A DNA stretch of 64,000 nucleotides from an uncultured virus (IMG/VR IMGVR_UViG_3300011885_000055) (taxonomy: Duplodnaviria > Heunggongvirae > Uroviricota > Caudoviricetes): IMG/VR virus record IMGVR_UViG_3300011885_000055, one strand, 5' to 3'. The notes beneath the pieces were generated by a model. It was given only the letters and a program-made list of their open reading frames with translations, was not told the origin of the DNA and ran no database searches. Every line of letters starts with the position of its first letter. The first letter of the stretch is position 1. Positions 5,330 through 39,048 of the stretch are shown here, one piece after another. Position numbers and translations under genes: made by a program.

Positions 5330-5372
5330 ATCTATCCCTCTTTTTTTATATAAAAATTTAATTGCACTTCCT

Positions 5373-7398
5373 CTAAACCCTATACTCCCCATTCTTCTCA
5401 GCTACCATATCTAGTGATAATTCATCCATATCAACATTTCCACACATAAGCTCTGCCTGTCTCATAACTACTTCCAAAGCATGCTTTGCTTGTTCTGGTG
5501 GATAATCATATTTTTTTAACAATCTCTTTATTATTCTTCTCATACCTGCTTGAGCACTTTTCCTTACACTCCAATCTATAGTAATATTATTTTTTATAGA
5601 CATTGTTAGCTCATGGGCTATTTTCTTTAGTGTATCATCATCCATAAATTCTTTAATTATATCATCAGCAGTTAAAGCATCGTAGAAAGCTATTTCATCA
5701 TCATTAAGTCCTAAATCTTTTTCTTTATCTTTCATTGCTTTTATTTCTAGAGCCATTTTAATAAGCTCTTCTATTACCTCTGCATTAGTTATAGCTTGAT
5801 TTCTATATTTATTAAGAGCTTTCTTTAGTTTTTCTGAGAACTTTTCAGACTTAACTAAATTTCTTTTCTCCATGGATTTTAAATTTCCTTCAAGAAGTTT
5901 TTTAAGCATTTCAACAGCTAAATTTTTATATTTAATAGCTTTTCCTCTTCTAAGAACTCTTCTGAAAGAATTGAAACTTCTGGTCTTTTAATACCAAGTG
6001 TATCAAAAACATCAATGACTTCTTCTGATATAATGGATCTTTCAAGCATCTGATTAACTCTTGCTTCAATTTCTTTTTTTGATTTTTTTATAACATTTTT
6101 TGAGTCAAGTTTTGCTAAACTTGCTTTAACAGCCTTAAAGTAAGCTACTTCTAAAGCTAAAGCTTTACCGACCTCTGTTGCTGCACATAAGGAATGAGCT
6201 TTCGCTAGTTCAATTGCAAACTGTTTAAATTCCTTTTGCTGCTTTTCTTCCATACCTAGAACTAAATTCATACCACTAGTTATAGCTCTAATTCTAGCAG
6301 CTTGAGAACTACCCATATATGCTGAGTAATCTAGTCCATGAACCATATCACGAAGAATTTCAAGTTTTTCAATCATTACAGATATTGCAGCTGATGTATC
6401 TATACCTGTATTTTGCTTATCATTATCTGTATATTGCTTCAGTGCTTTTTTTAAGCTCTCAAGAATTCCAAGATAATCAACTACAACACCACCTGATTTA
6501 TCTTTGAAAACTCTGTTTACTCTCGCTATTGCTTGCATTAAATTATGTCCTTGCATTGGCTTGTCTATATACATAGTATGCATTGAAGGAACATCGAAAC
6601 CAGTAAGCCACATATCTCTAACAATAACTATTTTTAGCTCATTGTTATTATCCTTCATTCTTTTAGCTAAAGTATCACGTCTTTGTTTTCCATCTATATG
6701 CTTTTGAAGTCTTTCACTATCAGCCGCACTTCCAGTCATTACAACCTTTATTTTACCTTTATTAACATCATCACTATACCAATCTGATCTAATCTTTATG
6801 ACTTCGTCATAAAGGTTTACAGCTATTCTTCTACTCATACATACAACCATAACTTTACCATCAATAGTTTTAGCTTTTTCTTCATAGTGTTAACTATATC
6901 TTCTGCCAGCTTTTTAACTCGGTTTGGTGATCCTACAACAGCTTCTAATCTTGACCACTTTAACTTATTATATTTCTCTCTGTCATTATCCTCTTGACCT
7001 TCTGTAATTTCTTCAAATTCCTCATCTATTTTTTTAAGTTCTTCATCATCAGTTTCTAATTTAATAATTCTATTTTCGTAGTATATTTTAACAGTAGCTT
7101 CATCTTCAACAGCTCTTGTCATATCATAAGTATCAATACATTCCCCAAATACAGATGTAGTTGATCTATCCTCTAAATCTATTGGTGTACCTGTAAATCC
7201 TATAAATGAAGCATTAGGAAGAGCATCTCTTAGGTATTTTGCATAACCATACTTAACTTCACCAGTTTTAGTGTCAGTTTTTGCTTCTAAACCATACTGA
7301 CTTCTATGCGCTTCATCTGCAATGATGATAACATTTCTTCTATCCGTAAGTGATGGCATTTCGCCATCTTCTGGCTTAAACTTTTGAATAGTAGTAAA
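5373..7398 (-). pseudogene. hsdR: Type I restriction subunit R, frameshifted and N-terminally deleted
   Basis: [43 protein letters not shown] and a DUF3387-type C-terminus, split over three ORFs; nuclease and Walker A region missing. Confidence 0.9.
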
Positions 7399-7754
7399 TG
7401 ATATGCAGATGTACTTGTTTCAGCAACTGCTTGTAAATATTCTGAATCCACTAAATCTTCTTTTGCTGATAATACTGAAAAACCAGTAGAAGCAATTAAA
7501 TTTTCTTCAATTTTCTTAATTATTCCATAGTGCTTTTGATTTGGTCTAACTGTAGATATTAGAATGTCATTTTTTTCTACTTTTCTCTTCGCTCTACTTG
7601 GTAATTTATCTTCTCCAATAATTAATTTTTGCAAATTATCTATTATACCTTCAGTCAAATTGGAAGTATCTAAATAATTAATAAAATCTAAATTATCCTT
7701 TGTCGATAGATTATTTTTATTTGTATTACAAATATCAGAAACTTTAAAACTCAT
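7399..7754 (-). pseudogene. hsdS: Type I specificity subunit S, N-terminal fragment fused to hsdR by deletion
   Basis: LPSRAKRKV...DILISTVRPNQKHYG...IASTGFSVL TRD motifs; runs directly into hsdR sequence. Confidence 0.8.
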
Positions 7755-8685
7755 ACCCAATCCCTCCTAGATTCTTTCTTATCTTATCCTCTAGACGTCT
7801 TGATTTTACAAAGAGTTCTCCTATTTCACTTGTTAATGCTTCCATCTTATCTTCAAAGGGAATTCCATCATCTTCTGCTTCTTCTATCCCTACATATCTA
7901 CCTGGTGCCAGTACATATTCATGCTCCCTAACATCTTCAAGTTTTGCTGCCTTACAAAATCCTTGAATATCTTCATAATTACCATTAATATTTCTATAAC
8001 AGTGATAAGTTTCTGCTATCTTTTTAATATCCTCATCACTTAATTCTCTATGTCTTCTATCAACCATTTCTCCTAAGTTTCTAGCATCTATAAATAGTAT
8101 TTCATCTTCTATACTTCTAAATTTAGGATTGTCTTTTCTATTTCTATTTAGTATCCATAGGGAAACTGGAATTCCTGTGGAGTAGAATAACTTATCTGGA
8201 AGTGCTACAATTGCATCTACTAATTTTCCTTCTACTAAATTCTTTCTAATTTCTCCTTCATTAGAAGTATTTGAGCTTAGTGCTCCATTAGCAAGAACTT
8301 TACCTGCACAACCATTTGGTGCTAATTGGTATACCATATGCTCTAGCCATGCATAATTTGCATTTCCTTCTGCGGTGTTCCATATTTCCATCTTACATCT
8401 TCTGTTAATTTATTTCCACCCCAGTCGCTTATGTTGAATGGAGGATTGGCTAGTATGTAGTCTGCTTTTAACATCTTATGAAGATCATTATGGAAGGTAT
8501 CATCATGGTGTGGTCCTAAATTTCCATCTAACCCTCTTATCGCAAGGTTCATTCTGCAAAGCTTCCAAGTTGTTGAGTTCAGCTCTTGACCATAAATTGA
8601 TAAATTTTCTATCTTTCCTTTATGCTCTTCTACGAACTTTTCACTTTGAATAAACATTCCCCCTGAACCACAAGTTGGGTCGGTT
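7744..8685 (-). pseudogene. hsdM: Type I methyltransferase M, N-truncated and frameshifted
   Basis: [23 protein letters not shown]; frameshift near 8380 then GNANYAW...LFYSTGIPVSLW...LAPGRYVG; sequence upstream of DPTCG is unrelated. Confidence 0.9.
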
Positions 8686-8763
8686 AAGACACCAACTTTG
8701 ATACAATCAATAAAAGGGTGTGCATTACCGTGTGCAAGGCAACCTCCTATAGTCTTATCATAA

Positions 8764-9231
8764 TTAAGCTCGATTATTATCAATAAATTTCTCGATATCA
8801 CTCCATTGTATTTTGTTTTTTATAAGCGAAACCATTTTATTTCTAGCAATAAAATCATTGTTAGCATAAATATTATCATTCGATAGGATTTCATCTACCA
8901 CTTCTTTTACTTTGTCTTGCTGGCCACATACCTCGGCTATCCACAACAAAAGTTCGGGGCATCTCAAACTGCACCACGAGCGTACTTTTTCATCCTTAAA
9001 ACCTGGATTATCATTAGTTTTGCATTTATACCATGAGTAATTAAAATGCCACTTCTGATTGGGTTCTCCTTCTAATTTATAAATCATCACACCATCTTCA
9101 ATTGCCTTGTGAAGGTATGTTCCATTTCCGCTACTTGTCTGCTGATATCTACTAATAAACCGTGTTGTATGTTCCGGTTTACTTTCTCTATTATCATCAC
9201 TCAAGAAACAATAAATTTCCTTATAAGTCAT
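8764..9231 (-). CDS. Hypothetical protein (155 aa)
   Basis: ORF with [22 protein letters not shown] motif. Confidence 0.55.
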
Positions 9232-9300
9232 ATACTTTATTCTCCTCCATTACTTACTTTTTATCAAGGAGAGCATTGCCATCAACAACAGCTACTGCAT

Positions 9301-10203
9301 TTAAATATCAGAATCGATTTTTTCATCAACAAAGCGATACTCTTTCTTTACTAGAGCATCTGGATTATCTCGCTCTTTCTCTTTTGTATAAGGTCGAACA
9401 TGAATCACTCTACCATCTGCCAAAGTACGTTCATGCCCTCGAACGCCCCAAGCCGGTAATGTATACTGACGGCCAGAATCCATTGCACCATATTTTATTT
9501 CATTACCTTCTTCATCAATACCTATTACCCTTTTTACAAGAATTATGGAATTATCTTTTTTCGCATTGCTCGATTCTGTATTTCTGCAATAGGACCTCTT
9601 TGCTCTACAACCCTTACTTCTTGTGGTCTGTTATTAAGTTCAAATTGTATTCCTAGCCATAAATTACCTAACCAATAAGAAATTTTAGCCAAATCGTCAA
9701 ATGTGAAATAATCTAACGTTTCAATATTAATAAAAACTGGTTGAATATAAGCAACTTCGTCCTGGCTTATTTCAACAATAGCCGCCTCCATTTCCATGCC
9801 TGTGTCTTTATCTACAAAACAAATTGTAAATGCACAGTACACAGATTTGTTTATGTACTTGTATGTTGCGTAGATTCCATATACCTCTGCTGTTGGTCTT
9901 AAGTGTTGTATATTTGCTAGTAAACCACCAATTTGCGAGTCAGGATTCACTTCTCCAAATACATACATTTCAAAATCTTTCATTGTTATAGGTTGTGAAA
10001 AGAAATCGATATCTCTACCAATTAGCGAAATCTTATCTGCTTTTTAATCAGTAAGGTCAAAATAATCTAACTGCTCGGTAAAATCATACATTTTATCTTG
10101 TATTGAAACTTCTGAAAATTTAGTTTTTTCATCAATGCATTTATTCCAATACCAAGTTATATCATCTGAAGCTGATGGTAATTTGTCATACTTAAAATTC
10201 ATT
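9301..10203 (-). pseudogene. Fragmented hypothetical gene(s)
   Basis: Collinear ORF pieces 9543..9983 and 9301..9483 (WGVRGHER...VRPY) after an RBS near 10210; internal stops. Confidence 0.4.
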
Positions 10204-10220
10204 CAACTACCTCCATTTCG

Positions 10221-10418
10221 CTATTTAGGGTCTGATTGTATTTTTGCTAGAGTTTCAAGAATCTGTTTACTGATATCCTCCGGGTCATGATTTAGTGCCT
10301 CGCAAACAAACCTAAGACCATCCGGTGTTAGTATTCTTCCATCGGCTCTATCTCTGCACAACTGCATATAGTCCTCATATTGCTTTTTGGTTATTGTAGG
10401 CATTGAATCACTCTCCAT
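10221..10418 (-). CDS. Small hypothetical protein
   Basis: ORF with GRILTPDGLRFVCEA; likely start ATG 10403. Confidence 0.5.
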   Translation of the reverse strand: MESDSMPTITKKQYEDYMQLCRDRADGRILTPDGLRFVCEALNHDPEDISKQILETLAKIQSDPK

Positions 10419-10421
10419 TTT

Positions 10422-11024
10422 TTATTCTAAATGTTCTTTATACCATTCGCTTATGGCATCTCTATCCGAATCGAAGAACTGTGTCGAAATATAAAAATCT
10501 ACACCTTCAAAATTTAAAGCTTTGGCTATATATCTCTTTTGAGTTGAATTACCCATGTTGTCACTTCTATTATTTGCTATCGCTGGATAATCGGTTAACT
10601 GGAATAAAGATTTTGTATATTCCTTTGTTCTTAGTTTTTCAATTTCATCTGATGAAATATTTGATGTTGTAACTAAATTCTCAATCAAATTGTAAAACAG
10701 TTTAGCAACCGGGATTACTCCCTCTAACCATGTATCTTCATCATTGATATCAAAAGGTATTTCAGATAAAGAAAAACTAAAATCTTCAGTATCAAGGCTC
10801 ATTTTTAATAATAGGTCTTTAATGAACGATATGATGTTATTAGCAGAAAGGTTTGCTTCATAATATATTCCGCTATTATCAATCTGTTTTGCTTTTCTCA
10901 ACTGTCTATTATCATTTGTTATATATACTCTTGTTGCATTTGGAATAGAGTAATTATGAGTAGCCAAATCGGTAAATAGTTCTGTATCCAGATCATACGC
11001 AACACCGATGAACTTAGTTAGCAT
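10422..11024 (-). pseudogene. Probable C-terminal fragment of a restriction-associated protein
   Basis: IYYEANLSANNIISFIKDLL motif seen in C-termini of restriction-associated proteins; no clear RBS; upstream sequence looks like a deletion junction. Confidence 0.4.
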
Positions 11025-11146
11025 TTTGAATCAACAAGCGTTGCTCCACTAGGTATAATCGCTCTGTATAATTCAACTTTATCTAAAGCCCTATTGTTCA
11101 TTGTTTTTGCAATCTTATCTGCAGCAGTAGGTATCATTTCAGAAAT

Positions 11147-11407
11147 TCATGCAACACCCTTTTTGTCTTTAATCTCAAATAGCGCTTTATCATCAATGAA
11201 ATGCGTCAACGGCAGTTGCTCAATTTTAACAATATCACTATTCTGAAATCGATCTTCTTCAAGTGAATCAAGCTTAAAAAGCCCTGTTTCATTGTAGCCT
11301 TCATCCCTTGAAATCGTTGTTTCTGTTCTTTTCCTTTGGACAACGAAAATCAAGACAGCTATTAATATTGTTATTATTCCGATTAGAAAGTACTCCATGA
11401 TTTTCAC
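11147..11407 (-). CDS. Membrane-anchored hypothetical protein, probably truncated
   Basis: N-terminal TM helix YFLIGIITILIAVLIFVV followed by KRKR-like basic residues. Confidence 0.45.
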   Translation of the reverse strand: MKIMEYFLIGIITILIAVLIFVVQRKRTETTISRDEGYNETGLFKLDSLEEDRFQNSDIVKIEQLPLTHFIDDKALFEIKDKKGVA

Positions 11408-11442
11408 CTCTCATTTTGCGGCAATTAATACTGTAAGGCTTT

Positions 11443-14400
11443 CTAGACACTCAACCTGCCATTAATCTGGTCAATAGCACCAATAATACGTTTTGCAACA
11501 TCGAGCTTACCATCAAATAAATGCATAACATTGCCACGCTTGTTAAATGGATGTTCATTGAGTACTCGTTTATCCAAACTACCGTTTTTAATCATATAAT
11601 TGACCACTAGTTTTACAAACTCCATTTGATTCAAATTAAGACTTTTGTCAGATAAAAACTCTGAAAAAACTTCATTGGCTGCTTGTGAGTCTAATCCTAC
11701 AATTTTACTCACCAGTTTGAGCAGTGGCTCATCACCAAATTCTTTTTCATAGTCTTCTCTTGTACCAAGTTCCTGCCAAAGAATCTTTTCAAAATACTTG
11801 ATATCATCTTCTATTAAAGGCTTGTTGTTTCTAAGTTTATAGATCACCATGTCATTCTGGTGGTCCATTAAGTACTTATTGACCTTTTTACGATAACTCT
11901 GCATGTCATTGACTGAATATTCACCAGGGTTTTCTTTTGTCTCCATAATCTCATCAGTGAAATTGGTATAGTAAATTTCGCCCGACTTGCTATCTAGGTA
12001 TTTGATTAAGTCTCTTAATGCTTCGCGCACTTCTTCATGGTCAAAAATATCTGCTTCTTCCCAATATTCATTGGTCTGAACTTTATAGATCAGTTCTTCC
12101 TGCTGTCTGACCTTCTCAATGGTGCCTTTAAATGTGAGTTTTTCTGCTGTATTTACAACACGATTCTTAGGCTTTGAAGCTGGTATACGCTTGATATCAG
12201 CATATTCAATGGTATACATCAAATAATCAAATCGCTTAGCTAGTTCGTCATCATCAATGGCTGGTACAAGTGGAGCAACGTGTTCTTCAAGGTCTCTAAC
12301 ATCAGCATCTGATAGACTTTCAAATGCACCTTCTTGATTGAACTTATGAATGAACTGAAGTTTCATTCTTGCATTGAACTTACTCTCATCAATGCCCTTT
12401 ATTTCCTTCAAGATACCTGCGATCAGAGCATTTCTATGTTCAATGTATTCCTCAGTCTGATAATCCATAATTTGTAGCCCTTTAATGATGCCAATACGGA
12501 TATTGAAAAGATTCTCAGTCAGTGATTTCATCATCTTAGCTTCTTTACCGTTTTTATTGGTTCTAAAGAACTCAAAATTGCCACAGTAATCAAAGATTCT
12601 AAAGCCTTCTTTATCCATTCCAACACCATATAAATCTTCACATAATCTGGTTCCACGACCTATCATCTGCCAAAACTTAGTCTTCGAACGTACCTTTTTG
12701 AAGAAAACAAGATTCAAAATCTCAGGAATATCAATACCAGTATCCAGCATATCCACAGACACAGCTATTTGTGGTAGCTTCGTTTTTACTTCAAAGTCGT
12801 CCATAGTACTTTCCACATAATTGATACCAGTATAAACAGGTTTAGCAAAGTTACCATGATATTCCGGGTAAAGGCTATTAAAACGTTCTACGATAAAATC
12901 TGCATGTTTTTTATTTTTAGCAAAGATGATGGTTTTGCCCAGCTTGTCGCCACCTTCAACTTTCAATCCTTTTGTCATAAGCTCTTGAAGGACTGTATCT
13001 ATAGTGTTGTCATTAAACAGGAATGAATTTAAAGCTTCCCCGCTGATATCTTTCACATCATCATCAAATGTTTCTTCAAACTGTTCTTTTTCTTCATCTG
13101 TCAGATCATCATAATGAATACCTTCTTCTAGGAATTTCATCTTAGTTTCTATGGTATGATAAGGCACCAAATAACCATCTTCAATAGCTTCACCTAACTC
13201 ATATGCATAAGTAGGTACATTATTTTCAAGTTCAAAAATAGAGTAGGTATTTTTATCAAGGTCATTCTTTGGCGTAGCTGTAAGTCCTAATAAAATGGCA
13301 TCAAAGTAATTGAAAATATCCTGATACTTTTTATAAATACTTCGGTGACTTTCATCAATAATAATCAGGTCAAAGTGACCGCTGGTAAAAAGCTTTTCAC
13401 TTCGTTTGTTCTTTACATCATCAATGGCATTCATCATGGTTGGATAAGTTGAAAATACCATTCTACTTTCAGGGTTATCCTTACTGTCTAATAAGTTACA
13501 AAGAGACAGTTCCGGTAACAGTGCCTTAAAATTTTTCTTTGCCTGTTTTACTAATGCTGTACGATCAGCAAGGAAAAGAATGTTTTTAACCCATCCTCTT
13601 TTAATCAGTACATCTACGGTTGATATAGCTGTCCTTGTCTTGCCTGAACCTGTTGCCATCACAAGTAGCGCTTTACGATTGCCTTTTTCAAGGGTATCAC
13701 ACACCGCTGTAATTGCCATTTTTTGATAATGACGGTTGGTGATGTCATCATCTATAACAGGATCTTTCAAAGATGATTTATTTTCTCGTTTAAAATGGAG
13801 CCATTCAAGCTCTTCTTTCGTGTAAATACCTGATACTAAGCGTTCTGGATAACTGGCATCGTCCCATAAATAATATTCAAAACCATTTGTATAGAAAATT
13901 ACTGGTCTGACCTTATACTGTTTTTCTAAACAATCTGCATAGCGTTGTGCTTGAATCTGCCCAACACGGGGATTTACACTGGTTTTCTTGGCTTCAATAA
14001 CTGCCAGGGGTTTGCCATTATCACCAAAAAGGACATAATCTACATAACCTAAACCTGCTTGATTAGGCATACCTTCCACTTCAACTTCTTCAAGACAATC
14101 CTTGCCGATAATCCAACCGTTAAGCTCAATTTCTAAATCAATGTACATCTTCCGTGTCTTGAATTCAGAAATCTCATCAACCTTGAAATCACGATTTTTC
14201 TTATTATCAACACGTTTTGCTGCATTAGCACGTCTTAATGCTTCATTTTCCTTAATAATTTCTTCAAGTTTACAGTCTTTTGAACCAAGACGCTCATATA
14301 AGTCTTTCAGTTCATCTCTGGTTTTTCTTTCTTTTTCATTCTCCCCAAGTAGGCTTTCATCAAAAGTAATCTCTTCATATTCATCCGAATAACAATAATC

Positions 14401-14766
14401 AATCCAAGAAACAAATTCAAAGAGATTGTGAAGGGCAAGTACTGCTTGGTCTCTTGAAATTGGCGTTGCTGAATGCACTGCTTTGTTACCAAGCTTTTGA
14501 ATGTAGGTAATCATGGGAAAAAGCTTGGTATCAATAATGCCTTTAAAACGGTAATCGTGAATTAAAGAAGCAAGGTTATCCTGATACGGTGCATCTAACT
14601 CATGGTCATAAGAAAACACCCACTTAACAGCCAATTCTAAGGCTCTACGTGCAAGTATGGCTGTACTGGCATAGGAAACCACCAAGCTCTTTTCAGCTTC
14701 TATACAGGCGTATGTAAAGTCCTTATATTTTTCTTCTTTTTTTAGGAAATCAAAGTTATAGCACAT
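11443..14766 (-). CDS. hsdR: Type I restriction subunit R (EcoAI/EcoEI-like, N-terminal DUF4145)
   Basis: VDYVL...VIEAKK nuclease motif, MATGSGKT Walker A, IIDESH, LTATP, SVDMLDTGID, QMIGRGTR; uninterrupted 1107 aa. Confidence 0.93.
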   Translation of the reverse strand: MCYNFDFLKKEEKYKDFTYACIEAEKSLVVSYASTAILARRALELAVKWVFSYDHELDAPYQDNLASLIHDYRFKGIIDTKLFPMITYIQKLGNKAVHSATPISRDQAVLALHNLFEFVSWIDYCYSDEYEEITFDESLLGENEKERKTRDELKDLYERLGSKDCKLEEIIKENEALRRANAAKRVDNKKNRDFKVDEISEFKTRKMYIDLEIELNGWIIGKDCLEEVEVEGMPNQAGLGYVDYVLFGDNGKPLAVIEAKKTSVNPRVGQIQAQRYADCLEKQYKVRPVIFYTNGFEYYLWDDASYPERLVSGIYTKEELEWLHFKRENKSSLKDPVIDDDITNRHYQKMAITAVCDTLEKGNRKALLVMATGSGKTRTAISTVDVLIKRGWVKNILFLADRTALVKQAKKNFKALLPELSLCNLLDSKDNPESRMVFSTYPTMMNAIDDVKNKRSEKLFTSGHFDLIIIDESHRSIYKKYQDIFNYFDAILLGLTATPKNDLDKNTYSIFELENNVPTYAYELGEAIEDGYLVPYHTIETKMKFLEEGIHYDDLTDEEKEQFEETFDDDVKDISGEALNSFLFNDNTIDTVLQELMTKGLKVEGGDKLGKTIIFAKNKKHADFIVERFNSLYPEYHGNFAKPVYTGINYVESTMDDFEVKTKLPQIAVSVDMLDTGIDIPEILNLVFFKKVRSKTKFWQMIGRGTRLCEDLYGVGMDKEGFRIFDYCGNFEFFRTNKNGKEAKMMKSLTENLFNIRIGIIKGLQIMDYQTEEYIEHRNALIAGILKEIKGIDESKFNARMKLQFIHKFNQEGAFESLSDADVRDLEEHVAPLVPAIDDDELAKRFDYLMYTIEYADIKRIPASKPKNRVVNTAEKLTFKGTIEKVRQQEELIYKVQTNEYWEEADIFDHEEVREALRDLIKYLDSKSGEIYYTNFTDEIMETKENPGEYSVNDMQSYRKKVNKYLMDHQNDMVIYKLRNNKPLIEDDIKYFEKILWQELGTREDYEKEFGDEPLLKLVSKIVGLDSQAANEVFSEFLSDKSLNLNQMEFVKLVVNYMIKNGSLDKRVLNEHPFNKRGNVMHLFDGKLDVAKRIIGAIDQINGRLSV

Positions 14767-14789
14767 GGTATTCCCCCTTTTGGTTTATT

Positions 14790-17700
14790 CTATTTATTTG
14801 TAATATATTTCAAAACATTTTCATATTCTGAATTTCTTAATCTTCTTGCTCCTTCATTAAACTCATATTTAACGCCAATATTTGTTTTGAACAAATTTGC
14901 TTCTGAACGATTAAGGTATAATTGCAAGGCATCTAATTCCTTATATAAATAATCATTTTTAATTTTCATCCATTTACACATAAAGTTACATTCTGAACAG
15001 GTACCGTTACTACCAATATCAATATCAAAATATGGTTTTAGTTCACCATCATCGTTACCACTTATTGAAAAATTTAGTTTACAGTTTTGGCTACTTTGTG
15101 TTCCAATCAAGTGCTTTACATCAAGATGAATGACAAAACTCACGTTTTCAATAATTGAACCAGGTCCGATCCAACTATGATTATCTTCCTTTTCTTTTCT
15201 GTCTTCAGCATCATAATTCACCTGAATATCTACATTTGAAATCGCCTTATGTGATAACCAATGAAAGCGTGTTGTAGCCGACATGCTGTTCTGACTATTA
15301 TCTAGAATAGCATTACTAATTCTATTAGATGACATATCTAATAGGTCTCCTATTCTTAGCAGAATCTTAATGTATTTTTCACTTACAATGCTTTCTTTAG
15401 CATTCGACTTGATTTTGTAAATTTCATCCACATCATAACCGTGTGCTTGGCTTATCTCGGCAACAATATCTTTCACTACATCTTCCACAAAATCGAAGTC
15501 ATTACTTTTTCTAATAAACCTCGCACTTTGTTTAGGATGATTGTTTCTTACATACCCCTCATAATATTGATCTAATTTTCCAAAAAAGTCTACTAATAAT
15601 TTCTTAATTGGCTGCTCTTGTATATAATCAATAGCCACTGTTGCTATCTTTCCTTGCCCATCTTTTTCTATTAAACTTTTTAAATTTCGCTTGAACTCAG
15701 AGTAAATTATATTTGATTCCTTATTATCTTTAATAAAGCTTTCCATTAAGTTCGGGTGCAGAACCATTGAAATATCATGTAAATAGCAACTAATAAAGAG
15801 AATATAGTAATCTCTCCTTGATATCTGGAAATAATTCACACTCTTCATAAACATGATAATTGATCTTATTAACTCTATAGCATGCTCTTGATTATGAAGT
15901 GTATAAAAGTGTAAGTATTTCGAACCATTCTTCCAGATATCACTTGTGTATTTGTGTACCATGATCAGATTATCGACATATACTGGATCTTGGACGAACT
16001 TTTCAAAGTAATCAATAACTTCAAACAAGGTATAATCTAGTACTTCGCTATTTCTGTAATCCTTAAACTTTGAATAGAAATTTTCTAATCTAAACTTTCT
16101 ATTTCTTAAAAAAAGTAAAACTCTTGCCTCATTGTAGTATATTGGCTTATTATTTCTTTTTGCCAAATACTTTAGATCATTTGCATCAATTGAAACAACC
16201 TCTGAAAAATATGTATTCATTAACATTCGATAAAGCTCATCAGTTTGCAATTTAATTAAATTGTACCGATTATTCAATGGTTCAATGAGTCCACTTTCAT
16301 TAATCACATTAATTATTGTGCAGTGCTCTTTGTTCTTATCTTGTCTAATCCCATTTTTAAAAACACTAAAAAACAGTTCAACAGCTTCTCTTATTCTCAG
16401 CTCTTTTTCTTGTTTACTTGACTTAGATATATTCCATACATTATCTCTTACGACTTTCAAAATACTGTCATATCTCGAAATGTCAGTTTCAATCTGTATC
16501 TTTCTTCTACGAGTCAGGCTCATACATATTTTATGAAAATAAGCTATTGTAAGTTCTTCACCATTTTGATTCCATTTATATGACTGAGTGTAAGTTTCTG
16601 TATTAAACTCATTAACAATTTTCTCAGCCTTCCCCCAGAAAATTGGACTATTCGCAAAGAAAAATCGAAACTCATTTAGCAGTATATCTTCATCATAAGC
16701 GTCAAAGAAACGTTTGAATTTTTCTTTATTTGTACTTCCGCTTTCAACCTTAAAGTTAGACAGTAATTCATTGATATCATTATCGTTAATATCATTACTT
16801 CTACTAAATTCCAACCTTCTTTGTCGGTACTTAAAAAACTTCTTGAATCTTAGAAGCACCTTAGTATAGTTAGAAGTATCTTCTTCTGGGTCAATCTTTC
16901 TTATCCTATTTATTTCATTTTCAACAGCTTGATAAATTGCTTCCAATTTTTTGGATAAGTTAATTTCTTCAGTATCAGAAAATATTTTACTCAAGTCATA
17001 AGAAGCCATTGACGCCAACTTGCTATAAGCATTCAAGTTAGCTTGTCCATATTTTGGATCTTGAATTTCTAATGCAGTACTTTTTTCACTTGCAGCATTA
17101 TGTACCTTAATCAAATAGTCAAATCTATCCAATATTTCAACAAACGCTTGTAAACTTGTTCCTTCAACCTCTCTCTTATACTCTTCAAGTTTACTCATAT
17201 ATTTATTACTCAACTCTTCAAGTTGCTTGTTAACGTCATTTATTTTTTCTGCCAGCTCACCTTCATCATTCAAATTATTAGTGTATATTACTGAGTCATC
17301 AACATAATAGAAAGCTTTACCATCTTCACCAGCAATAACTTTTTGAAAGATATCTGCAACCTTAACCATACAAATATTCCCGAAAAAATATGCATGAGGC
17401 AACCCTTGTGGTATTCCTTTCGTCCATACCTCACCATTTAAGAAATCAATATTACTACAGTCATAATACATTTTTTTGAAATCGTCTGACCTTAAATTAG
17501 AAATTTTGAACACCAACAGCTTAGATAATATTGTCTTAATACATTGAATGTCATTTGCATCATCATATTTTACAGAGTACTTGCTCATTATTTCATCATA
17601 AATAATTGCAGGATTTATTGAAGGAAAAAAATTCTTCAAGTCAAGGGTTACCTCAAACCTATATTCCTTCGTCTTGGTATACTCGTAGTAAGAACTCGTA

Positions 17701-18209
17701 ATAACATCGGTGTATTCTTTAAACTGATAATGCCAAGGCTTAAACAAATGCTCCGGTCTATCTGATGGAATATTACCATAAAAATTTGAAGGCAACGTTC
17801 TTGCAAGTTCTGTGAGTTCAATAGTTTTATCATCTTTTCCAATTTCAATTAAAAGAGTATTTAATAAAACAACACTTGCAATTAATGTATTTAAAGAGGC
17901 TGAATGAAGAGGTCTTGACTCAAGTTGATCTGTTTCTTTGTCAACCTTTTTAGGTCTGAAATAAACTTGTGCTTCAAAAAATTTACCATTGATAAGCACA
18001 TCATCAATTAAAGCTCTAACATTTTCGATGGTTTCATCAATGATTTTATGATTAAAGGGATCTCTTAGTTTCAACATCAAAGTATAGTCATCTTCATCAA
18101 GCAAGTCCTTTTCAAAAACATAACTCTCTAAAGAATAGATTGCCTTATATATAAAATCCTTTTCAGTGATCCTCTTGTATATATTACTACTTAGTAATTC
18201 GATCGCCAT
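14790..18209 (-). CDS. Reverse transcriptase fused to a C-terminal HD (HD-CE-like) phosphohydrolase; candidate defence-associated UG/Abi-type RT
   Basis: RT motifs YFRPKK, FYGN, LDLKNFFPSI, GIPQG, YYVDD (17295-17306); helical middle region; C-terminal YTLHNQEHA, YLHDISM (HD at 15774-15779), NNHP, AHG, RIGDLLDM. Confidence 0.85.
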   Translation of the reverse strand: MAIELLSSNIYKRITEKDFIYKAIYSLESYVFEKDLLDEDDYTLMLKLRDPFNHKIIDETIENVRALIDDVLINGKFFEAQVYFRPKKVDKETDQLESRPLHSASLNTLIASVVLLNTLLIEIGKDDKTIELTELARTLPSNFYGNIPSDRPEHLFKPWHYQFKEYTDVITSSYYEYTKTKEYRFEVTLDLKNFFPSINPAIIYDEIMSKYSVKYDDANDIQCIKTILSKLLVFKISNLRSDDFKKMYYDCSNIDFLNGEVWTKGIPQGLPHAYFFGNICMVKVADIFQKVIAGEDGKAFYYVDDSVIYTNNLNDEGELAEKINDVNKQLEELSNKYMSKLEEYKREVEGTSLQAFVEILDRFDYLIKVHNAASEKSTALEIQDPKYGQANLNAYSKLASMASYDLSKIFSDTEEINLSKKLEAIYQAVENEINRIRKIDPEEDTSNYTKVLLRFKKFFKYRQRRLEFSRSNDINDNDINELLSNFKVESGSTNKEKFKRFFDAYDEDILLNEFRFFFANSPIFWGKAEKIVNEFNTETYTQSYKWNQNGEELTIAYFHKICMSLTRRRKIQIETDISRYDSILKVVRDNVWNISKSSKQEKELRIREAVELFFSVFKNGIRQDKNKEHCTIINVINESGLIEPLNNRYNLIKLQTDELYRMLMNTYFSEVVSIDANDLKYLAKRNNKPIYYNEARVLLFLRNRKFRLENFYSKFKDYRNSEVLDYTLFEVIDYFEKFVQDPVYVDNLIMVHKYTSDIWKNGSKYLHFYTLHNQEHAIELIRSIIMFMKSVNYFQISRRDYYILFISCYLHDISMVLHPNLMESFIKDNKESNIIYSEFKRNLKSLIEKDGQGKIATVAIDYIQEQPIKKLLVDFFGKLDQYYEGYVRNNHPKQSARFIRKSNDFDFVEDVVKDIVAEISQAHGYDVDEIYKIKSNAKESIVSEKYIKILLRIGDLLDMSSNRISNAILDNSQNSMSATTRFHWLSHKAISNVDIQVNYDAEDRKEKEDNHSWIGPGSIIENVSFVIHLDVKHLIGTQSSQNCKLNFSISGNDDGELKPYFDIDIGSNGTCSECNFMCKWMKIKNDYLYKELDALQLYLNRSEANLFKTNIGVKYEFNEGARRLRNSEYENVLKYITNK

Positions 18210-18212
18210 ACA

Positions 18213-18761
18213 CTAATCCCCCAATCTGTCTATAAAAAATCGAATCGAATCAGTCAGGAATTTTATTAATTTCAAATTATCATCTGATACTAGATAATCT
18301 GAAAAAATACTTCCCTGACCATTATTAAATTGGCACTTTACATAAGTTTTATTGTTATCGACAGAATTAAGCTTTGGTATTTCACTGATTGTTCTTATCC
18401 ATTCACCAGTGCTATCTTCATAAGTATTATCAAATCTTAATTCCCAAGTATCATCAATCTGAATATTGAACTGACACTTTATACCATTGGGAATATGAAT
18501 TTTTTGAACTTCATTCAACATTTTATCTCTAAAGTCAACTTTTAAATTATATTTCTCAACATTAATCCAAAATTCAGGAATCATGTCTTTCAAATATGTT
18601 TCATTGTACTTATAGTCAGGATTTGTCAAATATATATAAGTTGCAAACAATTCAAGCAACCCATCTTTTTGAGGAGTCTTCTTGTGTTTACTCAGCTCTT
18701 TTAGCTCATTGATACACTTTAATCTATATTCTTTATCTCCCATAAAATCACCTCGTATCAT
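18213..18761 (-). CDS. Hypothetical protein between hsdS and the RT-HD gene
   Basis: 182-aa ORF, 3 nt from the RT start and 5 nt from the hsdS stop; likely start ATG 18743. Confidence 0.6.
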   Translation of the reverse strand: MIRGDFMGDKEYRLKCINELKELSKHKKTPQKDGLLELFATYIYLTNPDYKYNETYLKDMIPEFWINVEKYNLKVDFRDKMLNEVQKIHIPNGIKCQFNIQIDDTWELRFDNTYEDSTGEWIRTISEIPKLNSVDNNKTYVKCQFNNGQGSIFSDYLVSDDNLKLIKFLTDSIRFFIDRLGD

Positions 18762-18766
18762 TCAAA

Positions 18767-19927
18767 TTATAATCCATTACCGAATGACTTTTTCATCATA
18801 CTATGATAGTTGTTTTCTAACTCAGTTAAAGATGTATTAAGCAGTTTTCTTTCAGCTTCAATCATATCAATGACTTTACAAAAGTTCTTTTGGATATAGA
18901 GTTCAGGTAAAGGTATGTCTAAATCTCTTAGAATTTTCAGATTAATATTTTTTTGTGCTGACTCAGGAGCGTTAGCCTCAATAATCTTTTGTAAAAATCC
19001 AAACCATATTTGAACATACATTGATTCAACATTTTCATTTGGAATAAATGCAACAATACTATCTGGAAAACATGCATCAAATCCTAATATAGATGTTTTT
19101 GCAATATTTGCTGCAATAGTAACGCATAGAGTTCCCTTATCCCAAATTTTACTTTGTTGTAATCCTAGTTCAGAATAAGTTTGACTATAGTCATAAATAT
19201 ATAAGCCTGCATTGGCAATATCTCCAGTTTGAACAAGTGGATACTTTCCACCTAATAGTTCAGGGGCATTCCTAGGTCTATGCTTCGATTTTCCCCTCTC
19301 TAATGAACCTATTTCACCTAACTTCTTAACTTCCCACCCTTTAGGATTCGTCACCGGATCTCCAAACATCTCATAAAACACCGACTTAATCAACTCGTCC
19401 ATCAGCCGGATTTGCTCTTTTCTTGCATCAATAAGCCCCTGAGCCTTGTCCAAAACTTCAACGATTTTCTTTTGTGTTTCGAGAGGGGGGACTGGGATTA
19501 ATACATCTTTCAAAAATACTGTACTTAAATTCTTTTGTGCAATTCCATTAGAATTTTCAATACATATGTTTTCAAACTTATCACTATTTAAATAATAAAA
19601 CAAATATTTATAATAAATGTACTGGTTCTTTAGCCTAAGACATGCTACACGCTGATTTAGTGCGGCAGGCAGCAAAGATTTATCCATAATCCCTACTCTT
19701 CCAACGTTACCTGTCAAAGACATTAGAATATCATTTTCAAACAACTCATACTTTTTTAAATCCTCCATATCTTTATCACTGTAATATTGAGGAGCTTCAT
19801 CAACAATAACTCCTTTTTGCACATTAGTTATTCTAATTACTCTGTATCCCTTATTTGTGTATTTAGAACTTTTAAATGCATATCCATTTAATATGTCACA
19901 AATTTTTCCCAGTTTTAAATACTTCAT
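18767..19927 (-). CDS. hsdS: Type I specificity subunit S
   Basis: Two TRDs separated by IPVPPLETQKKIVEVLDKA...FYEMFGDPVTNPKGWE. Confidence 0.92.
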   Translation of the reverse strand: MKYLKLGKICDILNGYAFKSSKYTNKGYRVIRITNVQKGVIVDEAPQYYSDKDMEDLKKYELFENDILMSLTGNVGRVGIMDKSLLPAALNQRVACLRLKNQYIYYKYLFYYLNSDKFENICIENSNGIAQKNLSTVFLKDVLIPVPPLETQKKIVEVLDKAQGLIDARKEQIRLMDELIKSVFYEMFGDPVTNPKGWEVKKLGEIGSLERGKSKHRPRNAPELLGGKYPLVQTGDIANAGLYIYDYSQTYSELGLQQSKIWDKGTLCVTIAANIAKTSILGFDACFPDSIVAFIPNENVESMYVQIWFGFLQKIIEANAPESAQKNINLKILRDLDIPLPELYIQKNFCKVIDMIEAERKLLNTSLTELENNYHSMMKKSFGNGL

Positions 19928-19930
19928 TAC

Positions 19931-21394
19931 CTACACCATCCTCTCAATGTCATTAAGACCATCAAGAATCTGCTGTTCTAGTTCTTTGATTCTTTGAATA
20001 ATCACCTTTGATGCTTCATATTCCACTTCATCGTATTCAATTTCTTTATATCGATTGATAGATAAGTCATAACCATTATTTACAATTTCCTCTTTAGGAA
20101 CAAAGAAAGACTTCTCTGTACGCTTTCTACCCTTTTCATTTTCAAGATTATGATAACGACTGATAATATCAGGAATATCGTTCTCTTCAACTTGTTGGCG
20201 CTTATCGTCAAGGGATAGACCGTCTGCCTGCATATCATAGAACCAGACATTATTTGTGCCACCTGCACCAGTTTTAGTAAATATCATAATAGCAGTAGAA
20301 ACCCCAGCATAAGGTTTGAACACACCACTTGGCATTGAAATAATGGCTTGTAATTGATGGTTTTCTACAATCTCTTTACGAATAGACTTATGGGCATTTG
20401 AGCTACCGAATAGCACACCATCTGGTACGATGGAAGCACATCTACCACCTTTTTTGAGTGTTCTTAAAAACAAGGCTAAAAACAATAGCTCTGTCTTCTT
20501 AGTTTTAGTCACTTTCAATAAATCTGCCGATACACTGTCATAATCTAGTGAGCCTTTAAAGGGTGGATTTGCAAGAACGAGTGTATATTTTTCTCTATCT
20601 TTATTGGTTTCTGATAGAGAATCTCTATATTCGATATTCGGTCTATCAACACCGTGAAGCATCATGTTCATAGCACCGATACGAAGCATAGTTCTATCCA
20701 TGTCATTACCAAAGAACATATCCTTATGATAATGGTCTTTCAGTTCTTTAATAGTGAACATATCCTCATTATTTCGCTTTAAATACTCACCTGCCTCAAC
20801 AAGGAATCCTGCTGAACCAGCTGCTGGGTCTACAATAATATCCGTTGGAGTTGGTTGCATCAAGTCCACCATCATTTTAATGATGTGTCTTGGTGTTCTA
20901 AACTGTCCATTGGTTCCTGCTGTTGCTACTTTAGAAAGTAAATACTCGTATAAATCCCCTTTTGTATCATCCGTTGTGTTGCCTTCTTTAACTGGTAGTC
21001 CATCAATATTTGTAACAATCTTTTCTAGCATCTGTGGTGTTGGAATCATAAAGATGGCATCATCCATGTATTTGGTAAAAGCCGAATCCTTATCGCCATG
21101 CATGGTTTTGATGAATGGAAACACCTTTTTAGAAACTGTTTCATACATCCCTGTAGCACTCATTTGTTTGAATTTATGCCATCTTAGGTTTTGCTGATCG
21201 TCATTGAATATCTTGTTGAAGTCTGTACCGACAAACTCAGCCATTTTTTCTTCTTCTTTTTGCTTATCATCCAGTCCCTTTATAAATAAAAGATAGGTAA
21301 ACTGCTCGATAACAGACAGTGGATTGGTAATCCCACCGGTCCAGAATATCTCCCAAATTTTATCTACCTTACTTCTTAATTCACCTGTAATCAC
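19931..21394 (-). CDS. hsdM: Type I methyltransferase M
   Basis: GQFRTPRHII, DPAAGSAGFL, LANPPF, FKPYAGV; start GTG 21394 after GGAGG. Confidence 0.93.
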   Translation of the reverse strand: MITGELRSKVDKIWEIFWTGGITNPLSVIEQFTYLLFIKGLDDKQKEEEKMAEFVGTDFNKIFNDDQQNLRWHKFKQMSATGMYETVSKKVFPFIKTMHGDKDSAFTKYMDDAIFMIPTPQMLEKIVTNIDGLPVKEGNTTDDTKGDLYEYLLSKVATAGTNGQFRTPRHIIKMMVDLMQPTPTDIIVDPAAGSAGFLVEAGEYLKRNNEDMFTIKELKDHYHKDMFFGNDMDRTMLRIGAMNMMLHGVDRPNIEYRDSLSETNKDREKYTLVLANPPFKGSLDYDSVSADLLKVTKTKKTELLFLALFLRTLKKGGRCASIVPDGVLFGSSNAHKSIRKEIVENHQLQAIISMPSGVFKPYAGVSTAIMIFTKTGAGGTNNVWFYDMQADGLSLDDKRQQVEENDIPDIISRYHNLENEKGRKRTEKSFFVPKEEIVNNGYDLSINRYKEIEYDEVEYEASKVIIQRIKELEQQILDGLNDIERMV

Positions 21395-21424
21395 TATTGT
21401 TCCTCCCATAGTCTTTCATCTAAT

Positions 21425-21635
21425 TTAATAATCCAGTAAATGCTTGATCAGTTCTTCTTCTAGTCCCTTCGTTTTACAAAAATCATAAAGAGCTTTCTCG
21501 CTATTCTATTGGGACTGTTCTTACCATTTTCCAGCGGTTCACCGTGGCAAAGCTCACTTGAAGCTCTTTTGACAGTTGTTCTTGACTCATATTCAGATTA
21601 CTTCTAATTTCTTTAACTATTTGAGCAAATTCCAC
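21425..21635 (-). pseudogene. XRE-family HTH regulator (controller-like) with frameshifts
   Basis: GGAGG RBS, GTG start, EFAQIVKEIRSNLNMSQEQLSKELQVSFATVNRW, then continuity needs two frame changes to reach ...LYDFCKTKGLEEELIKHLLDY. Confidence 0.7.
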
Positions 21636-22008
21636 TTTATACGCCTCCAGCTCGTCACTTTATATTATAACAAATGTTATAATATATTCATACAATAATT
21701 TGAAAATTATCCCAAAGAAAAATCCACCGATATTACACCAGTGGATTCATATTTTTATTCAATTTCTTATGTCCCTACATTTCACATCCAAAAGCCAAGT
21801 CTAACGACAATCTCGTCTTTCAGTTCCTTATTTCTATAATTTACAATATCTTTCCTAAACATCAAATCTTGGTTTTAAGCGGTATATGGGCGAATACTAT
21901 TAGTCTTTTTTTGTATAGTGTTACTATAGTCTCCATATGTGTGTAGACAAGCTATCTATACTAATATACAAAAATATTAAGGCTATACCCCCTACGACTC
22001 TTTTGAAA

Positions 22009-23501
22009 TTAATGTGTTGTTTTTAAAACGGTGACTCTAGAAGATATAGCATTTAAGCTCTCAATGTTTACCAAGTAATTATCAAAATCTGAAAACTTAA
22101 TATTATTATAAAAAGTACTTTTATCATTAAAGTCTACCTTAGCATTAAAATTGTCATATTCATCCTTCTCTTTGAAAATCTTATTAATATAGCTTTCCTC
22201 TTTAAAATCCGATATCTTCAGATTAAGAAATGTTTCATAATTAATAGGTTTTGATAAAGTAAAACTGTCACATACTTTGCCATCCTTTCCATACTCACAA
22301 CCTTCAAAAACTGGTATTGCTAAGTTTACTCCGTGCGGATATTGAAAATCATTTTTTCCTTTTTTAGACAAATATGCAATGCCATCTATCTGTAACTCTT
22401 TCAAACAATGCATAATTAATTGAGAAATTATATATTCGGATTTAAATTTTCTTTCCTTTTCCAAAACTGTAAATGAAGTTGCAATGACGAGCGGAAATAA
22501 TTTCAACATTTCAATTTGTAATTTTTTCCTTATGCTCTGCTCACTTTCACATCTTCTATTAAAAATACCATTTATTAATGGTTGCGATATCACTAAATTT
22601 AGTATTTTTAACTTTTTACCATTTTCATTGAATTTATATGAGCAAACATTAAAATTTTGATTTTCGGGTTTATCTAATTCCTGCCAGCATACATATGAAG
22701 TTGTCCCAAGGTATATACATGGTATCCCAGCTATACTGAACCGTTGAGTTGCAATTATACCCCTCATATCAAATGGAATATGCAACATACCATCTCGGTC
22801 TTCAACATTACCTGTTCTAGCCTTATAAAAACTGAGAGGTTCTTCATTCATTTCTCTATATTCTTGTTCATAATTATTAGTTTGCAAATCGACAAATGGT
22901 GCTATCCCTCTAAAAGCATAACTTTTGTCTAACTCTGACACAAAAAAATTTTGATTGTTCGATTTATATTGTTCTAAAATCTCCTTAATTAACAATTTTG
23001 ATTTAACAATATCTCCTTTGTAATAATTTTCTATGGCACAATTAATTTTATTAATATTATATTCTATTTCTTTTAGTAGATTAGGTTCATCTTTAAATGC
23101 AACTTTATTATATAAAAAATCATAATATTTTTTTAATACTATAGACAATTCTTTAATGTAGTCACTATCTTTTTTAATTACTATTGGCAGTGAAAATCCA
23201 TTAATATTATTATCATAATATTCCATTCTAAAATTGTAGGCCTCCTTTTGTTCTGAACTTAATAAGTCCTCAATATTTATTTTAGAATATTCTATATATT
23301 CCTCATTCATGTTTACTTTCTGCAAATACTTATAATAGATGTTTTCTGAAATAATTTCATAATTACCCATTTGAGTTATTTTTTAAATTTACCAACAAAA
23401 CCTGATGCTCCATAATAATCTATAATTATCAAACTGTTACTAGGGTCTTTGTATATATTGGATAGTGGTATTTTATTAAGCAAAATTAAATATTTATCCA
23501 T
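22009..23501 (-). CDS. RES-domain-like protein, probably frameshifted near its N-terminus
   Basis: QRFSIAGIPCIYLG...CWQE and EYIISQL...IDGIAYLS motifs. ORF from ATG 23501 (RBS AGAGG) stops after an A6 run (23379-23384); one extra A would join it to 22009..23370. Confidence 0.6.
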
Positions 23502-23522
23502 CCCATAACCTCTACATACAAA

Positions 23523-24776
23523 TTATTCATTACTAGAATTCAGCATTTTACTTTTTCTTTCCTCTAGCATAGGTTGCTCAACTGAAGTGCCCTCTAATGC
23601 TTGTACTGGTACATATCTATTTGCAATGTTTTCAAGTATTCCAGCTGTAATTTGTCCAGTTTGTTCCACAATACGTTCTTTGCTTTGTAAAAACCCTTCT
23701 ATAATTTGACTTTGACGTTTTGAAATAGAATCAATTTGCATAGTATAATGTTTAGCTTGAAGCATCATATCATCTTCAATTCTTTTCCTATAAAGATCAT
23801 GTGATGGTGTTCCTATTTCATATCGTTCTAGTAAAGATAATAGCTGTGGCAATTTATCTGTATTATAAACATCATCATCTGCTTTAATTTTATCTCCTAA
23901 TTCATCATAAAACCCTTCTATTTCCTTTATGATTTGTAAAGAACCTTTTTCAATAATTGCTAAACGTTTTTCAGCCACCTCGTTAAGTTTTTCTTGCATA
24001 GCTATAATAGTTTGAGCCATATAGTTCAGACCTTTTGCTTTAGCTTCTTCAAGAGCTATGTTACTTTTATATTCAAATTCTAACATATCAAGACGAGCAT
24101 TTTTCATAAGCTCAATTCTTTCGTTTTCCTTATCAGCAAGTCTTAGTCTTGTATCGGCTTCAATTTCTGCCACTTTTACTTTATCTGGTTCATAATTATA
24201 TGTATTTGCAGTAGATGTTCTGCCTCCTCCGTTTGATTTTCCATTACCCCAAAATGCATTCCACGCATCACCTATTCTACTAAACAACCCCATATCATTA
24301 CCTCTCCTTTTCTTTGGCAAGCTACCGCCACCTAAAATAATATCAAATACTCTTTCGACTTGTTTGCTTCTAAATCTTCCCAATGTACACATATTAGCAA
24401 AATGCTCACAGTTGTTTATAACCAAATTGTAACCTGCATCCCCCAAACACCCTCTAGCATAATGAACAATATGTTCAACTGGATAAAGGTCATCCAATTC
24501 TTCCTCTGTATACTCTTTAACCTCAAGTTTTCCACCACGCAAAAAATCTTCCAAGTCAGTTTTTATAACTTCACACTTTGACCAATCCAATACGCTATCA
24601 TCATCTGTTCCGGTAAAATGAATTACTTCTTCATCTGAGATATAAACTCCATGATGATTATATAACCCCCTTGATACTCTTATATGATCTCCTTTTTTAG
24701 GATTTGTATAGTTCCAAATTTCTTGTGGCTCTACATCTAAAATTAATCCTATGTCCGGGCGTGATATTATGCTCAT
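23523..24776 (-). CDS. LRAT-family (permuted NlpC/P60) domain plus long coiled coil
   Basis: GDHIRV...YNHHGVY...VIHF and YNLVINNCEHFA motifs; helical C-terminal half. Confidence 0.8.
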   Translation of the reverse strand: MSIISRPDIGLILDVEPQEIWNYTNPKKGDHIRVSRGLYNHHGVYISDEEVIHFTGTDDDSVLDWSKCEVIKTDLEDFLRGGKLEVKEYTEEELDDLYPVEHIVHYARGCLGDAGYNLVINNCEHFANMCTLGRFRSKQVERVFDIILGGGSLPKKRRGNDMGLFSRIGDAWNAFWGNGKSNGGGRTSTANTYNYEPDKVKVAEIEADTRLRLADKENERIELMKNARLDMLEFEYKSNIALEEAKAKGLNYMAQTIIAMQEKLNEVAEKRLAIIEKGSLQIIKEIEGFYDELGDKIKADDDVYNTDKLPQLLSLLERYEIGTPSHDLYRKRIEDDMMLQAKHYTMQIDSISKRQSQIIEGFLQSKERIVEQTGQITAGILENIANRYVPVQALEGTSVEQPMLEERKSKMLNSSNE

Positions 24777-38989: not shown

Positions 38990-39048
38990 AATATATTCCT
39001 CCTTAAATTTTGAAAAATAAAAGAGTAGGATTGCTCCCACTCTGTAGA

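Follow-up and report, generated by a model that had tools for sequence, protein, structure and literature searches.

What does a reverse transcriptase (RT) gene do in the middle of a type I restriction-modification (R-M) operon: does it serve the R-M enzyme, or does it act on its own? The question arises from a 64,000-nt stretch of DNA catalogued as an uncultured Caudoviricetes virus (IMG/VR record IMGVR_UViG_3300011885_000055; this whole stretch is referred to as the window in the rest of the text), in which open reading frame (ORF) calls place five minus-strand genes within positions 11443-21409 in the order hsdM-hsdS-orf182-RT/HD-hsdR. The fourth gene codes for a fusion of an RT with an HD phosphohydrolase. 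The original prediction, made from the letters of the window, read the RT-HD protein as a little-characterized defense RT, possibly guarding the R-M complex, in which RT activity controls a nucleotide-degrading HD effector. We find a known architecture, the two-gene form of the UG24 group, embedded in a type I R-M operon, which is an ordinary arrangement and not a new system. Overall, we favor with fair confidence the reading that the locus is an autonomous class 3 UG24 defense module carried as cargo of the R-M operon.

The RT/HD protein and its accessory gene

The RT/HD protein matched the PADLOC model RT_UG24 (PDLC03762) over nearly its entire length (E 1.6e-295, 981 bits, residues 8-1137 aligned with positions 2-1035 of 1036). 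The next-best RT model was RT_UG6 with 41.7 bits, and no match to the UG1 or UG5 models was found at E ≤ 0.01. The protein almost certainly belongs to UG24 and hence to class 3, an assignment that rests on the best PADLOC profile match and not on an RT tree. In the available text of Mestre 2022 (PMC9226505), UG24 is a class 3 UG/Abi RT group with a C-terminal phosphohydrolase (COG3294), associated with genes of clusters 1299 and 1808 or with a DnaG-type primase (cluster 192). The same text predicts the defense role of UG24 from single loci and does not list the group with the systems tested; it makes no mention, as far as available, of a type I R-M context for UG24. The window locus shares with this description the full-length profile, the order of RT and phosphohydrolase, the RTas1299 gene upstream and the defense-island setting. 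It differs in being a two-gene copy inside a type I R-M operon: RTas1808 and the DnaG-type primase are absent, hsdS being the next gene upstream. The PADLOC comparison that the original prediction suggested thus returned a known group together with its already published accessory gene, which lowers the novelty of the architecture; the description as a little-characterized defense-type RT fused to an HD hydrolase stands. No NCBIfam model matched the RT/HD protein or orf182.

Beyond the full-length profile match, the window protein has the RT catalytic core and the C-terminal HD fold domain that define membership. The RT motif residues D190, Q268/G269 and YVDD are unchanged across 30 homologues (33-96% identity), and so are the HD ligands H772, H776, H811-D812, H891, H923, D955 and D958, which likewise do not vary in a further alignment covering 34 C-terminal domains. 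Together with an RVT_1 match above the cut-off and a match to PF24391, these alignments bear out the predicted full RT core with YVDD and the predicted HD-CE-like domain that keeps its metal ligands. Between the two, at about residues 340-740, a helical middle is predicted. In the 34-domain alignment C1043, C1074 and C1078 are also invariant and the fourth Cys column is at least 90% conserved, pointing to a putative zinc site at the C-terminal Cys cluster.

In a structure model of the C-terminal 399 residues (pLDDT 81), the HD domain is helical and leads into an alpha/beta sub-domain that bears the Cys cluster. Its strong fold neighbors all belong to the HD superfamily, GppA/PPX ranking at the top (Z 12.8 and 12.4), and its lower neighbors include HD hydrolases, SidE-type and cyclic-nucleotide phosphodiesterases, HD-GYP, YpgQ and Rel. 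The protein shares the HD fold and the H...HD...H...D metal site with HD-superfamily phosphohydrolases, including the defense dGTPase, but it is nearest to the C-terminal domain of GppA/PPX and does not match the PADLOC dGTPase model. With Foldseek, neither the HD model nor that of RTas1299 had a PDB match at E ≤ 0.001, and PDB sequence searches with the HD part returned nothing useful. Searching the PDB with a profile of the whole protein gave only a weak match, to the group II intron RT GsI-IIC, spanning motifs A and C. HD-CE domains are also found as stand-alone proteins; a literature search on HD-CE and iHD-CE domains turned up nothing relevant.

The gene directly upstream, orf182, codes for the RTas1299-type accessory protein of UG24. 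Its true start is probably the ATG at 18743, which would give a product of 176 aa, because a GAGGTGA ribosome site precedes this ATG and homology to relatives begins there; with this start the gap between hsdS and orf182 is 23 nt. Among RTas1299 sequences Y46 is invariant, and N47 and D97 are conserved in at least 90%. In the AlphaFold2 (AF2) model of the protein (pLDDT 89.8), the N-terminal half is helical and the C-terminal half beta-alpha. VIA-align placed residues 64-176 nearest to T7 Gp1.2 (Z 7.1, root-mean-square deviation 3.2, 77 residues aligned), followed by HPF/RaiA (Z 6-6.9), a likeness within a Z range that possibly means just a common arrangement and which we treat as a lead only. 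T7 Gp1.2 is an inhibitor of an HD-domain dGTPase, and HPF/RaiA proteins are ribosome hibernation factors.

A two-gene cassette and its rare association with type I R-M

DNA homology between the window and L001, one of the fetched loci that carry relatives (L numbers below), amounts to 86% and spans 18754-14779, stopping at both ends. These limits correspond to the orf182 ribosome site and to a point 11 nt beyond the RT stop codon. Since homology ends at the edges of the cassette, the cassette carries no conserved non-coding flank. The intergenic gaps from hsdM to hsdR measure 3, 5, 3 and 23 nt, no Rfam match at E ≤ 1 was found in window positions 9000-24000, and the repeats at 10000-23500 were just low-identity AT-rich ones, none of them meaningful. 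The predicted lack of room for an adjacent template RNA is therefore upheld, and it fits class 3, because no non-coding RNA (ncRNA) has been identified in class 3 DRTs according to the available text of PMC13436386. A retron, a diversity-generating retroelement and a group II intron were considered and rejected, as neither msr-msd, nor template and variable repeats (TR/VR), nor intron RNA lies beside the RT, where there is no non-coding space.

The UG24 family is large but patchy. Of 8000 candidate proteins, 641 scored at E ≤ 0.001, and those nearest in the database (P0006-P0019) are 84-96% identical. From metagenomes, 369 of 585 stretches were confirmed as relatives and 80 were kept, representing 75 loci; species-representative genomes held 4 UG24 loci. 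In the phylum of L001, UG24 occurred in 1 of 401 sampled genomes, that one being L001's own, and in 0 of the 400 others. No confirmed relative was found in the IMG/VR viral contigs, phage records or plasmids searched, and the plasmid search with the UG24 profile yielded just two distant HD-domain matches.

The RTs of the fetched loci fell into 44 clusters at 90% identity, referred to here as lineages. Of the 57 complete loci (full-length RT plus at least 600 nt upstream), 56 have an RTas1299 homologue immediately upstream and on the strand of the RT, as detected with a hidden Markov model (HMM) of the accessory protein; among the loci that were left out of HMM building, 28 of 29 have it. In the exception (L079 6107-9917), RTas1299 lies 3.2 kb upstream of the RT, possibly as the result of an insertion. 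RTas1808 is carried by only 6 of the 44 lineage representatives and is absent from the other 38. Taken with the near-constant presence of RTas1299, this indicates that the conserved unit is, as judged by gene content, the two-gene cassette RTas1299 + RT/HD found in the window. No fused RTas1299-RT form was found among the longer proteins, which is weak evidence. The RT is split into two ORFs in L003, L043/L044 and L051, which are probably pseudogenes. In L007 (3197-6205) the gene immediately upstream of the cassette codes for a PrimPol-helicase fusion of about 1000 aa, and in L060 (1012-3963) such a fusion is found 5.5 kb upstream; it recalls the primase-associated UG24 variant but is of the AEP type and not of the DnaG type.

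The R-M operon that surrounds the window cassette is intact as judged from its ORFs, and enzyme activity is predicted. HsdM, HsdS and HsdR are all full-length against the type I models of Pfam and PADLOC, which they match end to end, HsdM aligning with MTase_I (E 2.5e-191, residues 6-492 on model positions 2-489 of 491) and HsdR with REase_I (E 3.3e-168, residues 3-1075 on 8-1075 of 1107). On these points, as on the gene order and the tight packing of the five genes, the original prediction is confirmed. A promoter and terminator scan of the window performed no better than chance.

To assess how far UG24 is tied to type I R-M, we took a single representative for each of the 44 clusters and ran PADLOC on the products of the three ORFs that flank its RT on either side, 213 proteins in all. 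The scan was then extended to 94 of the 106 additional ORFs that measure 330 aa or more and lie within 10 kb, 12 being left out for size. In addition, phmmer was run with the window Hsd proteins over all ORFs of the fetched loci. Type I R-M genes occur within 10 kb of UG24 in 2 of the 44 lineages, plus one hsdR remnant in L002, and in none of the fetched loci does the cassette lie between hsdS and hsdR (the S-R slot). That position, in which the original prediction proposed to look for homologues, holds the cassette only in the window and in its closest relatives in two public runs, X1 and X4. In the first of the two lineages, L037 (1-10066), the gene order is hsdM-hsdS-PDC-S32/AbiJ_NTD4-orf118-hsdR-RTas1299-RT; its HsdR and HsdM are 48% and 63% identical to those of the window, whereas its RT is only about 35% identical. 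The S-R slot of L037 thus holds an AbiJ_NTD4/PDC-S32 gene and a 118-aa ORF, and the distant UG24 cassette follows directly after hsdR. The second lineage is the cluster L012/L013/L023, represented by L013 with the order hsdM-hsdS-PDC-S56-truncated hsdR-HATPase_c_4/wHTH gene-RTas1299-RT.

Type IV-like PLD-helicase restriction genes (PADLOC mREase_IV) are more frequent neighbors, occurring in 6 of the 44 lineages (L004, L011, L032, L041, L063 and L078). Small mad2-like methyltransferase or PDC-S07 genes often lie near these mREase_IV-linked cassettes. Other neighbors over the 44 lineages belong to Qat, Hachiman, AbiG, AbiL, Dnd-like, DISARM, type III R-M, Cas10 and candidate systems.

Close relatives of the window locus allow its recent history to be followed. 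X4, an 11.1-kb contig about 7.5% diverged from the window, is unbroken over hsdR, the RT gene and orf182 (14056-18754) and also covers hsdM; the two recognition parts of its hsdS are swapped for 635 and 361 other letters while the flanks still align. X4 comes from an RNA library in which DNA carry-over is possible, and we did not take it as evidence of expression. In X1, a DNA metagenome, contigs bridge the junction of RT and hsdR and also run from orf182 to hsdM over 1362 letters that belong to a different hsdS. One X1 contig of depth 50 apparently joins hsdR at 13665 to hsdM at 20388, skipping 6722 nt with a shorter side of 39 nt; this join is not interpretable and may reflect another organism or a cassette-free, rearranged R-M operon. 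A contig of X3 departs from the window at 14781 and is not interpretable either.

Away from an R-M operon, the L001 cassette stands without any hsd gene, and in L002 (83% identical) the first codons of hsdR, a 5′ remnant, follow right after the RT gene. The tyrosine recombinase beside the L001 cassette (8323-9324) is 65% and 58% identical to the S-R slot integrases of related R-M operons, which lie between hsdS copies (L082 5889-6857 and L084 1139-2134); the similarity hints at one recombinase family serving both slot cargo and hsdS shuffling. Among related R-M operons (HsdR 40-49% identical), that of L037 has PDC-S32/AbiJ_NTD4 in its S-R slot; in those from viral contigs the slot is empty (L085, L087) or occupied by DUF2971/PDC-S31, an integrase with a second hsdS, or unknown genes. 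Such varied or empty slots agree with the available text of a preprint (Payne 2024) and of the TgvAB paper, where type I R-M operons are described as frequent hosts of embedded defense genes, and the role of the slot as a home for such genes, named in the original prediction, is thereby supported. A single insertion into the R-M operon, followed by inheritance and partial decay, would explain the arrangements in X1, X4, L002 and L001.

Candidate mechanism and alternative readings

We propose that the cassette was inserted without non-coding flanks into the S-R slot of an intact type I R-M operon, in a defense island that adjoins a prophage, and that it would be co-transcribed from the operon as cargo while acting independently of the R-M enzyme. 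By analogy with DRT1 and DRT5S/L, DNA synthesis by the RT domain would need no RNA template and would start from a protein residue as primer. The DNA adduct, or an assembly state, would together with RTas1299 restrain the C-terminal HD hydrolase; upon release by a phage cue, the HD domain would hydrolyze an essential phosphoester (nucleotide pool or nucleic acid) and infection would be aborted. The invariance of both catalytic sites, the flank-free cassette and the varied defense neighbors in 44 lineages support this reading, and an autonomous anti-phage role of the cassette appears likely. The step in which protein-primed, template-free synthesis gates the HD effector is put forward tentatively, with slightly less than even confidence.

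The analogy draws on class 3 relatives. In the available parts of PMC13275509, DRT1 and DRT5S/L carry out DNA synthesis that is template-free and protein-primed, and in DRT1 the RT-made DNA adducts both enable and restrain a nitrilase, both activities being required for abortive defense. The predicted control of an HD effector by RT activity would fit this precedent, which UG24 may follow. Like the window protein, DRT1 (UG1) and DRT5S/L are described as large multidomain proteins of the same class with an N-terminal RT, a C-terminal hydrolase effector and no known ncRNA, as far as the available texts go (PMC13275509, PMC13436386); they differ in that their effector is a nitrilase and not an HD phosphohydrolase, and UG24 has an obligate small partner gene. 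As invariant candidates for the priming site, the RT offers S400 and K376, with S377 conserved in 90% or more, and RTas1299 offers Y46.

Several points weigh against this reading. The priming serine of DRT1 is not conserved in other class 3 DRTs according to the available text of PMC13275509, so a priming site in the UG24 protein cannot be transferred from DRT1. We found no experiment on any UG24 member in the literature searched. Because the structural matches of the HD model are generic within the HD superfamily, from GppA/PPX to HD-GYP, phosphodiesterases, YpgQ and Rel, with a best Foldseek E of 0.02, the model does not allow a substrate to be assigned; nor do the middling fold matches of RTas1299 to T7 Gp1.2 and HPF allow a role to be assigned to that protein. 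Lastly, the cassette was kept in the R-M operon despite differing hsdS genes in X1 and X4, and a functional tie could exist.

Such a tie is the essence of a PrrC-like guard, in which the RT-HD module would monitor R-M and fire, in an hsd-dependent manner, when a phage anti-restriction factor disables it. The window cassette resembles PrrC/EcoprrI, TgvAB of Vibrio cholerae VPI-2 and other instances of 'guilt by embedding' (Payne 2024, available text) in its S-R slot position and tight packing. PrrC is described there as almost exclusively embedded in type I R-M, and the embedded order is kept in X1 and X4 through changes of the hsdS recognition parts. The hsdR remnant of L002, the kinship of the L001 integrase with S-R slot integrases and the position of the distant L037 and L013 cassettes just downstream of type I hsdR also speak for a guard. 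The protein families are nevertheless unrelated, and UG24 lies mostly outside R-M, unlike PrrC: with type I R-M nearby in 2 of the 44 lineages, near-exclusive co-occurrence is not seen, type IV-like restriction endonucleases are commoner neighbors, the S-R slot holds the cassette in none of the fetched loci, and the L001 cassette does without hsd genes altogether. The available text of Payne 2024 lists a single embedded 'DRT type III' instance and 0 occurrences of UG24. Persistence in close relatives is explained by descent from a single insertion. We consider a guard very unlikely, and the dedicated guarding of the R-M complex suggested by the original prediction is not borne out. It is likewise a long shot that, in the clostridial lineage, UG24 was fixed in type I R-M through several HsdS changes as a PrrC-like second line freed when restriction is blocked, with RTas1299, whose C-terminal half is like T7 Gp1.2, braking the HD domain.

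Two further readings concern the cassette itself. The RT might, in the manner of class 2, copy a specific RNA template, located inside the coding sequence or elsewhere, into functional cDNA. Literature abstracts report ncRNA templates for DRT2, DRT9 and DRT10, and a template overlapping the coding region would be compatible with the sequence. The narrow gaps, the flank-free cassette and the lack of an Rfam match argue against it, as do the template-free synthesis of DRT1 and DRT5S/L (PMC13275509) and the lack of a known ncRNA in class 3 (PMC13436386), so far as these sources are available, and we give it scant probability. Alternatively, the cassette might have no part in defense and be a selfish addiction or stabilization module, or a nucleotide-metabolism enzyme hitch-hiking in mobile islands. 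Its mobility and patchy distribution (the single genome of 401), the broken copies in L003, L043/L044 and L051 and the existence of stand-alone HD-CE domains would suit such a role. Defense genes are nevertheless its neighbors across the 44 lineages, the catalytic residues of both RT and HD domains are strictly conserved, the class 3 relatives tested in the available part of PMC13275509 are anti-phage, and no searched collection of phages, plasmids or viral contigs contains the cassette, which makes a role outside defense improbable.

UG24 is the phosphohydrolase branch of class 3 defense RTs, classified but with no tests found in the literature searched, and the window locus is a compact, apparently intact two-gene example of it. 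The relatives provide natural comparisons: the cassette can be compared inside R-M and away from it, and R-M operons of one family can be compared with their slot empty or holding other cargo. They raise the questions of whether class 3 RTs follow a common regulatory scheme in which a DNA adduct gates a hydrolase and effectors can be exchanged, of what the HD domain breaks down, and of whether embedding in R-M matters beyond co-expression.

Gene neighborhood in the window

The coordinates of the operon, its domains and the other annotated genes are collected below.

Features of the window, with positions counted from its first letter
Feature	Position	Strand	Evidence or remark
hsdR, type I restriction subunit, 1107 aa, DUF4145 at N-terminus	11443..14766	-	Pfam ResIII, HSDR_N, EcoEI_R_C, DUF4145
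UG24 reverse transcriptase-HD phosphohydrolase fusion, 1139 aa	14790..18209	-	PADLOC RT_UG24
C-terminal Cys cluster (C1043, C1071, C1074, C1078) in alpha/beta sub-domain	14976..15083	-	conservation
HD-CE phosphohydrolase domain, residues 768-1005	15195..15908	-	Pfam PF24391, E 7e-27
RT core, residues 156-332	17214..17744	-	Pfam RVT_1, E 9.3e-8, above curated cut-off
YVDD motif, residues 302-305	17295-17306	-	within RT core
orf182, RTas1299-type accessory gene of UG24, 182 aa as called	18213..18761	-	PADLOC RTas1299, E 4.7e-13
hsdS, specificity subunit, 386 aa	18767..19927	-	Pfam Methylase_S, two stretches, E 5.8e-45; PADLOC Specificity_I, E 5.7e-73
hsdM, type I R-M methyltransferase, 492 aa	19931..21409	-	Pfam N6_Mtase, E 3e-66, and HsdM_N
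FRG-domain/PDC-S15 gene	4181-5392		adjoins degraded R-M
PDC-S31/DUF2971 gene	26862-27752		
Serine recombinase	28214-29131		without catalytic N-terminal domain
Second serine recombinase	29489-30775		
PDC-S14/DUF4357 gene	31439-32344		
TnpB-like gene	33399-34733		
Dam-like methyltransferase	34811-35569		
Prophage lysis cassette	38162-39549		amidase, holin, XhlA
Prophage tail fibre	40543-43095		collagen-repeat

The window is a defense island that contains, besides the operon, PDC-S15, a degraded second type I R-M operon, PDC-S31, PDC-S14 and a Dam-like methyltransferase. The degraded operon occupies 5373-9231, with hsdR in at least three pieces (5373-5909, 5918-6850 and 6835-7359), an hsdS fragment (7287-7760) and hsdM in two pieces (7744-8391 and 8343-8801). 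A siphovirus-type prophage at 35786-63769 codes for tape measure, capsid, ClpP-like protease, portal, terminase and HNH proteins. At 774-1259 a TerL nuclease fragment stands apart, which suggests that the window also contains remains of another phage.

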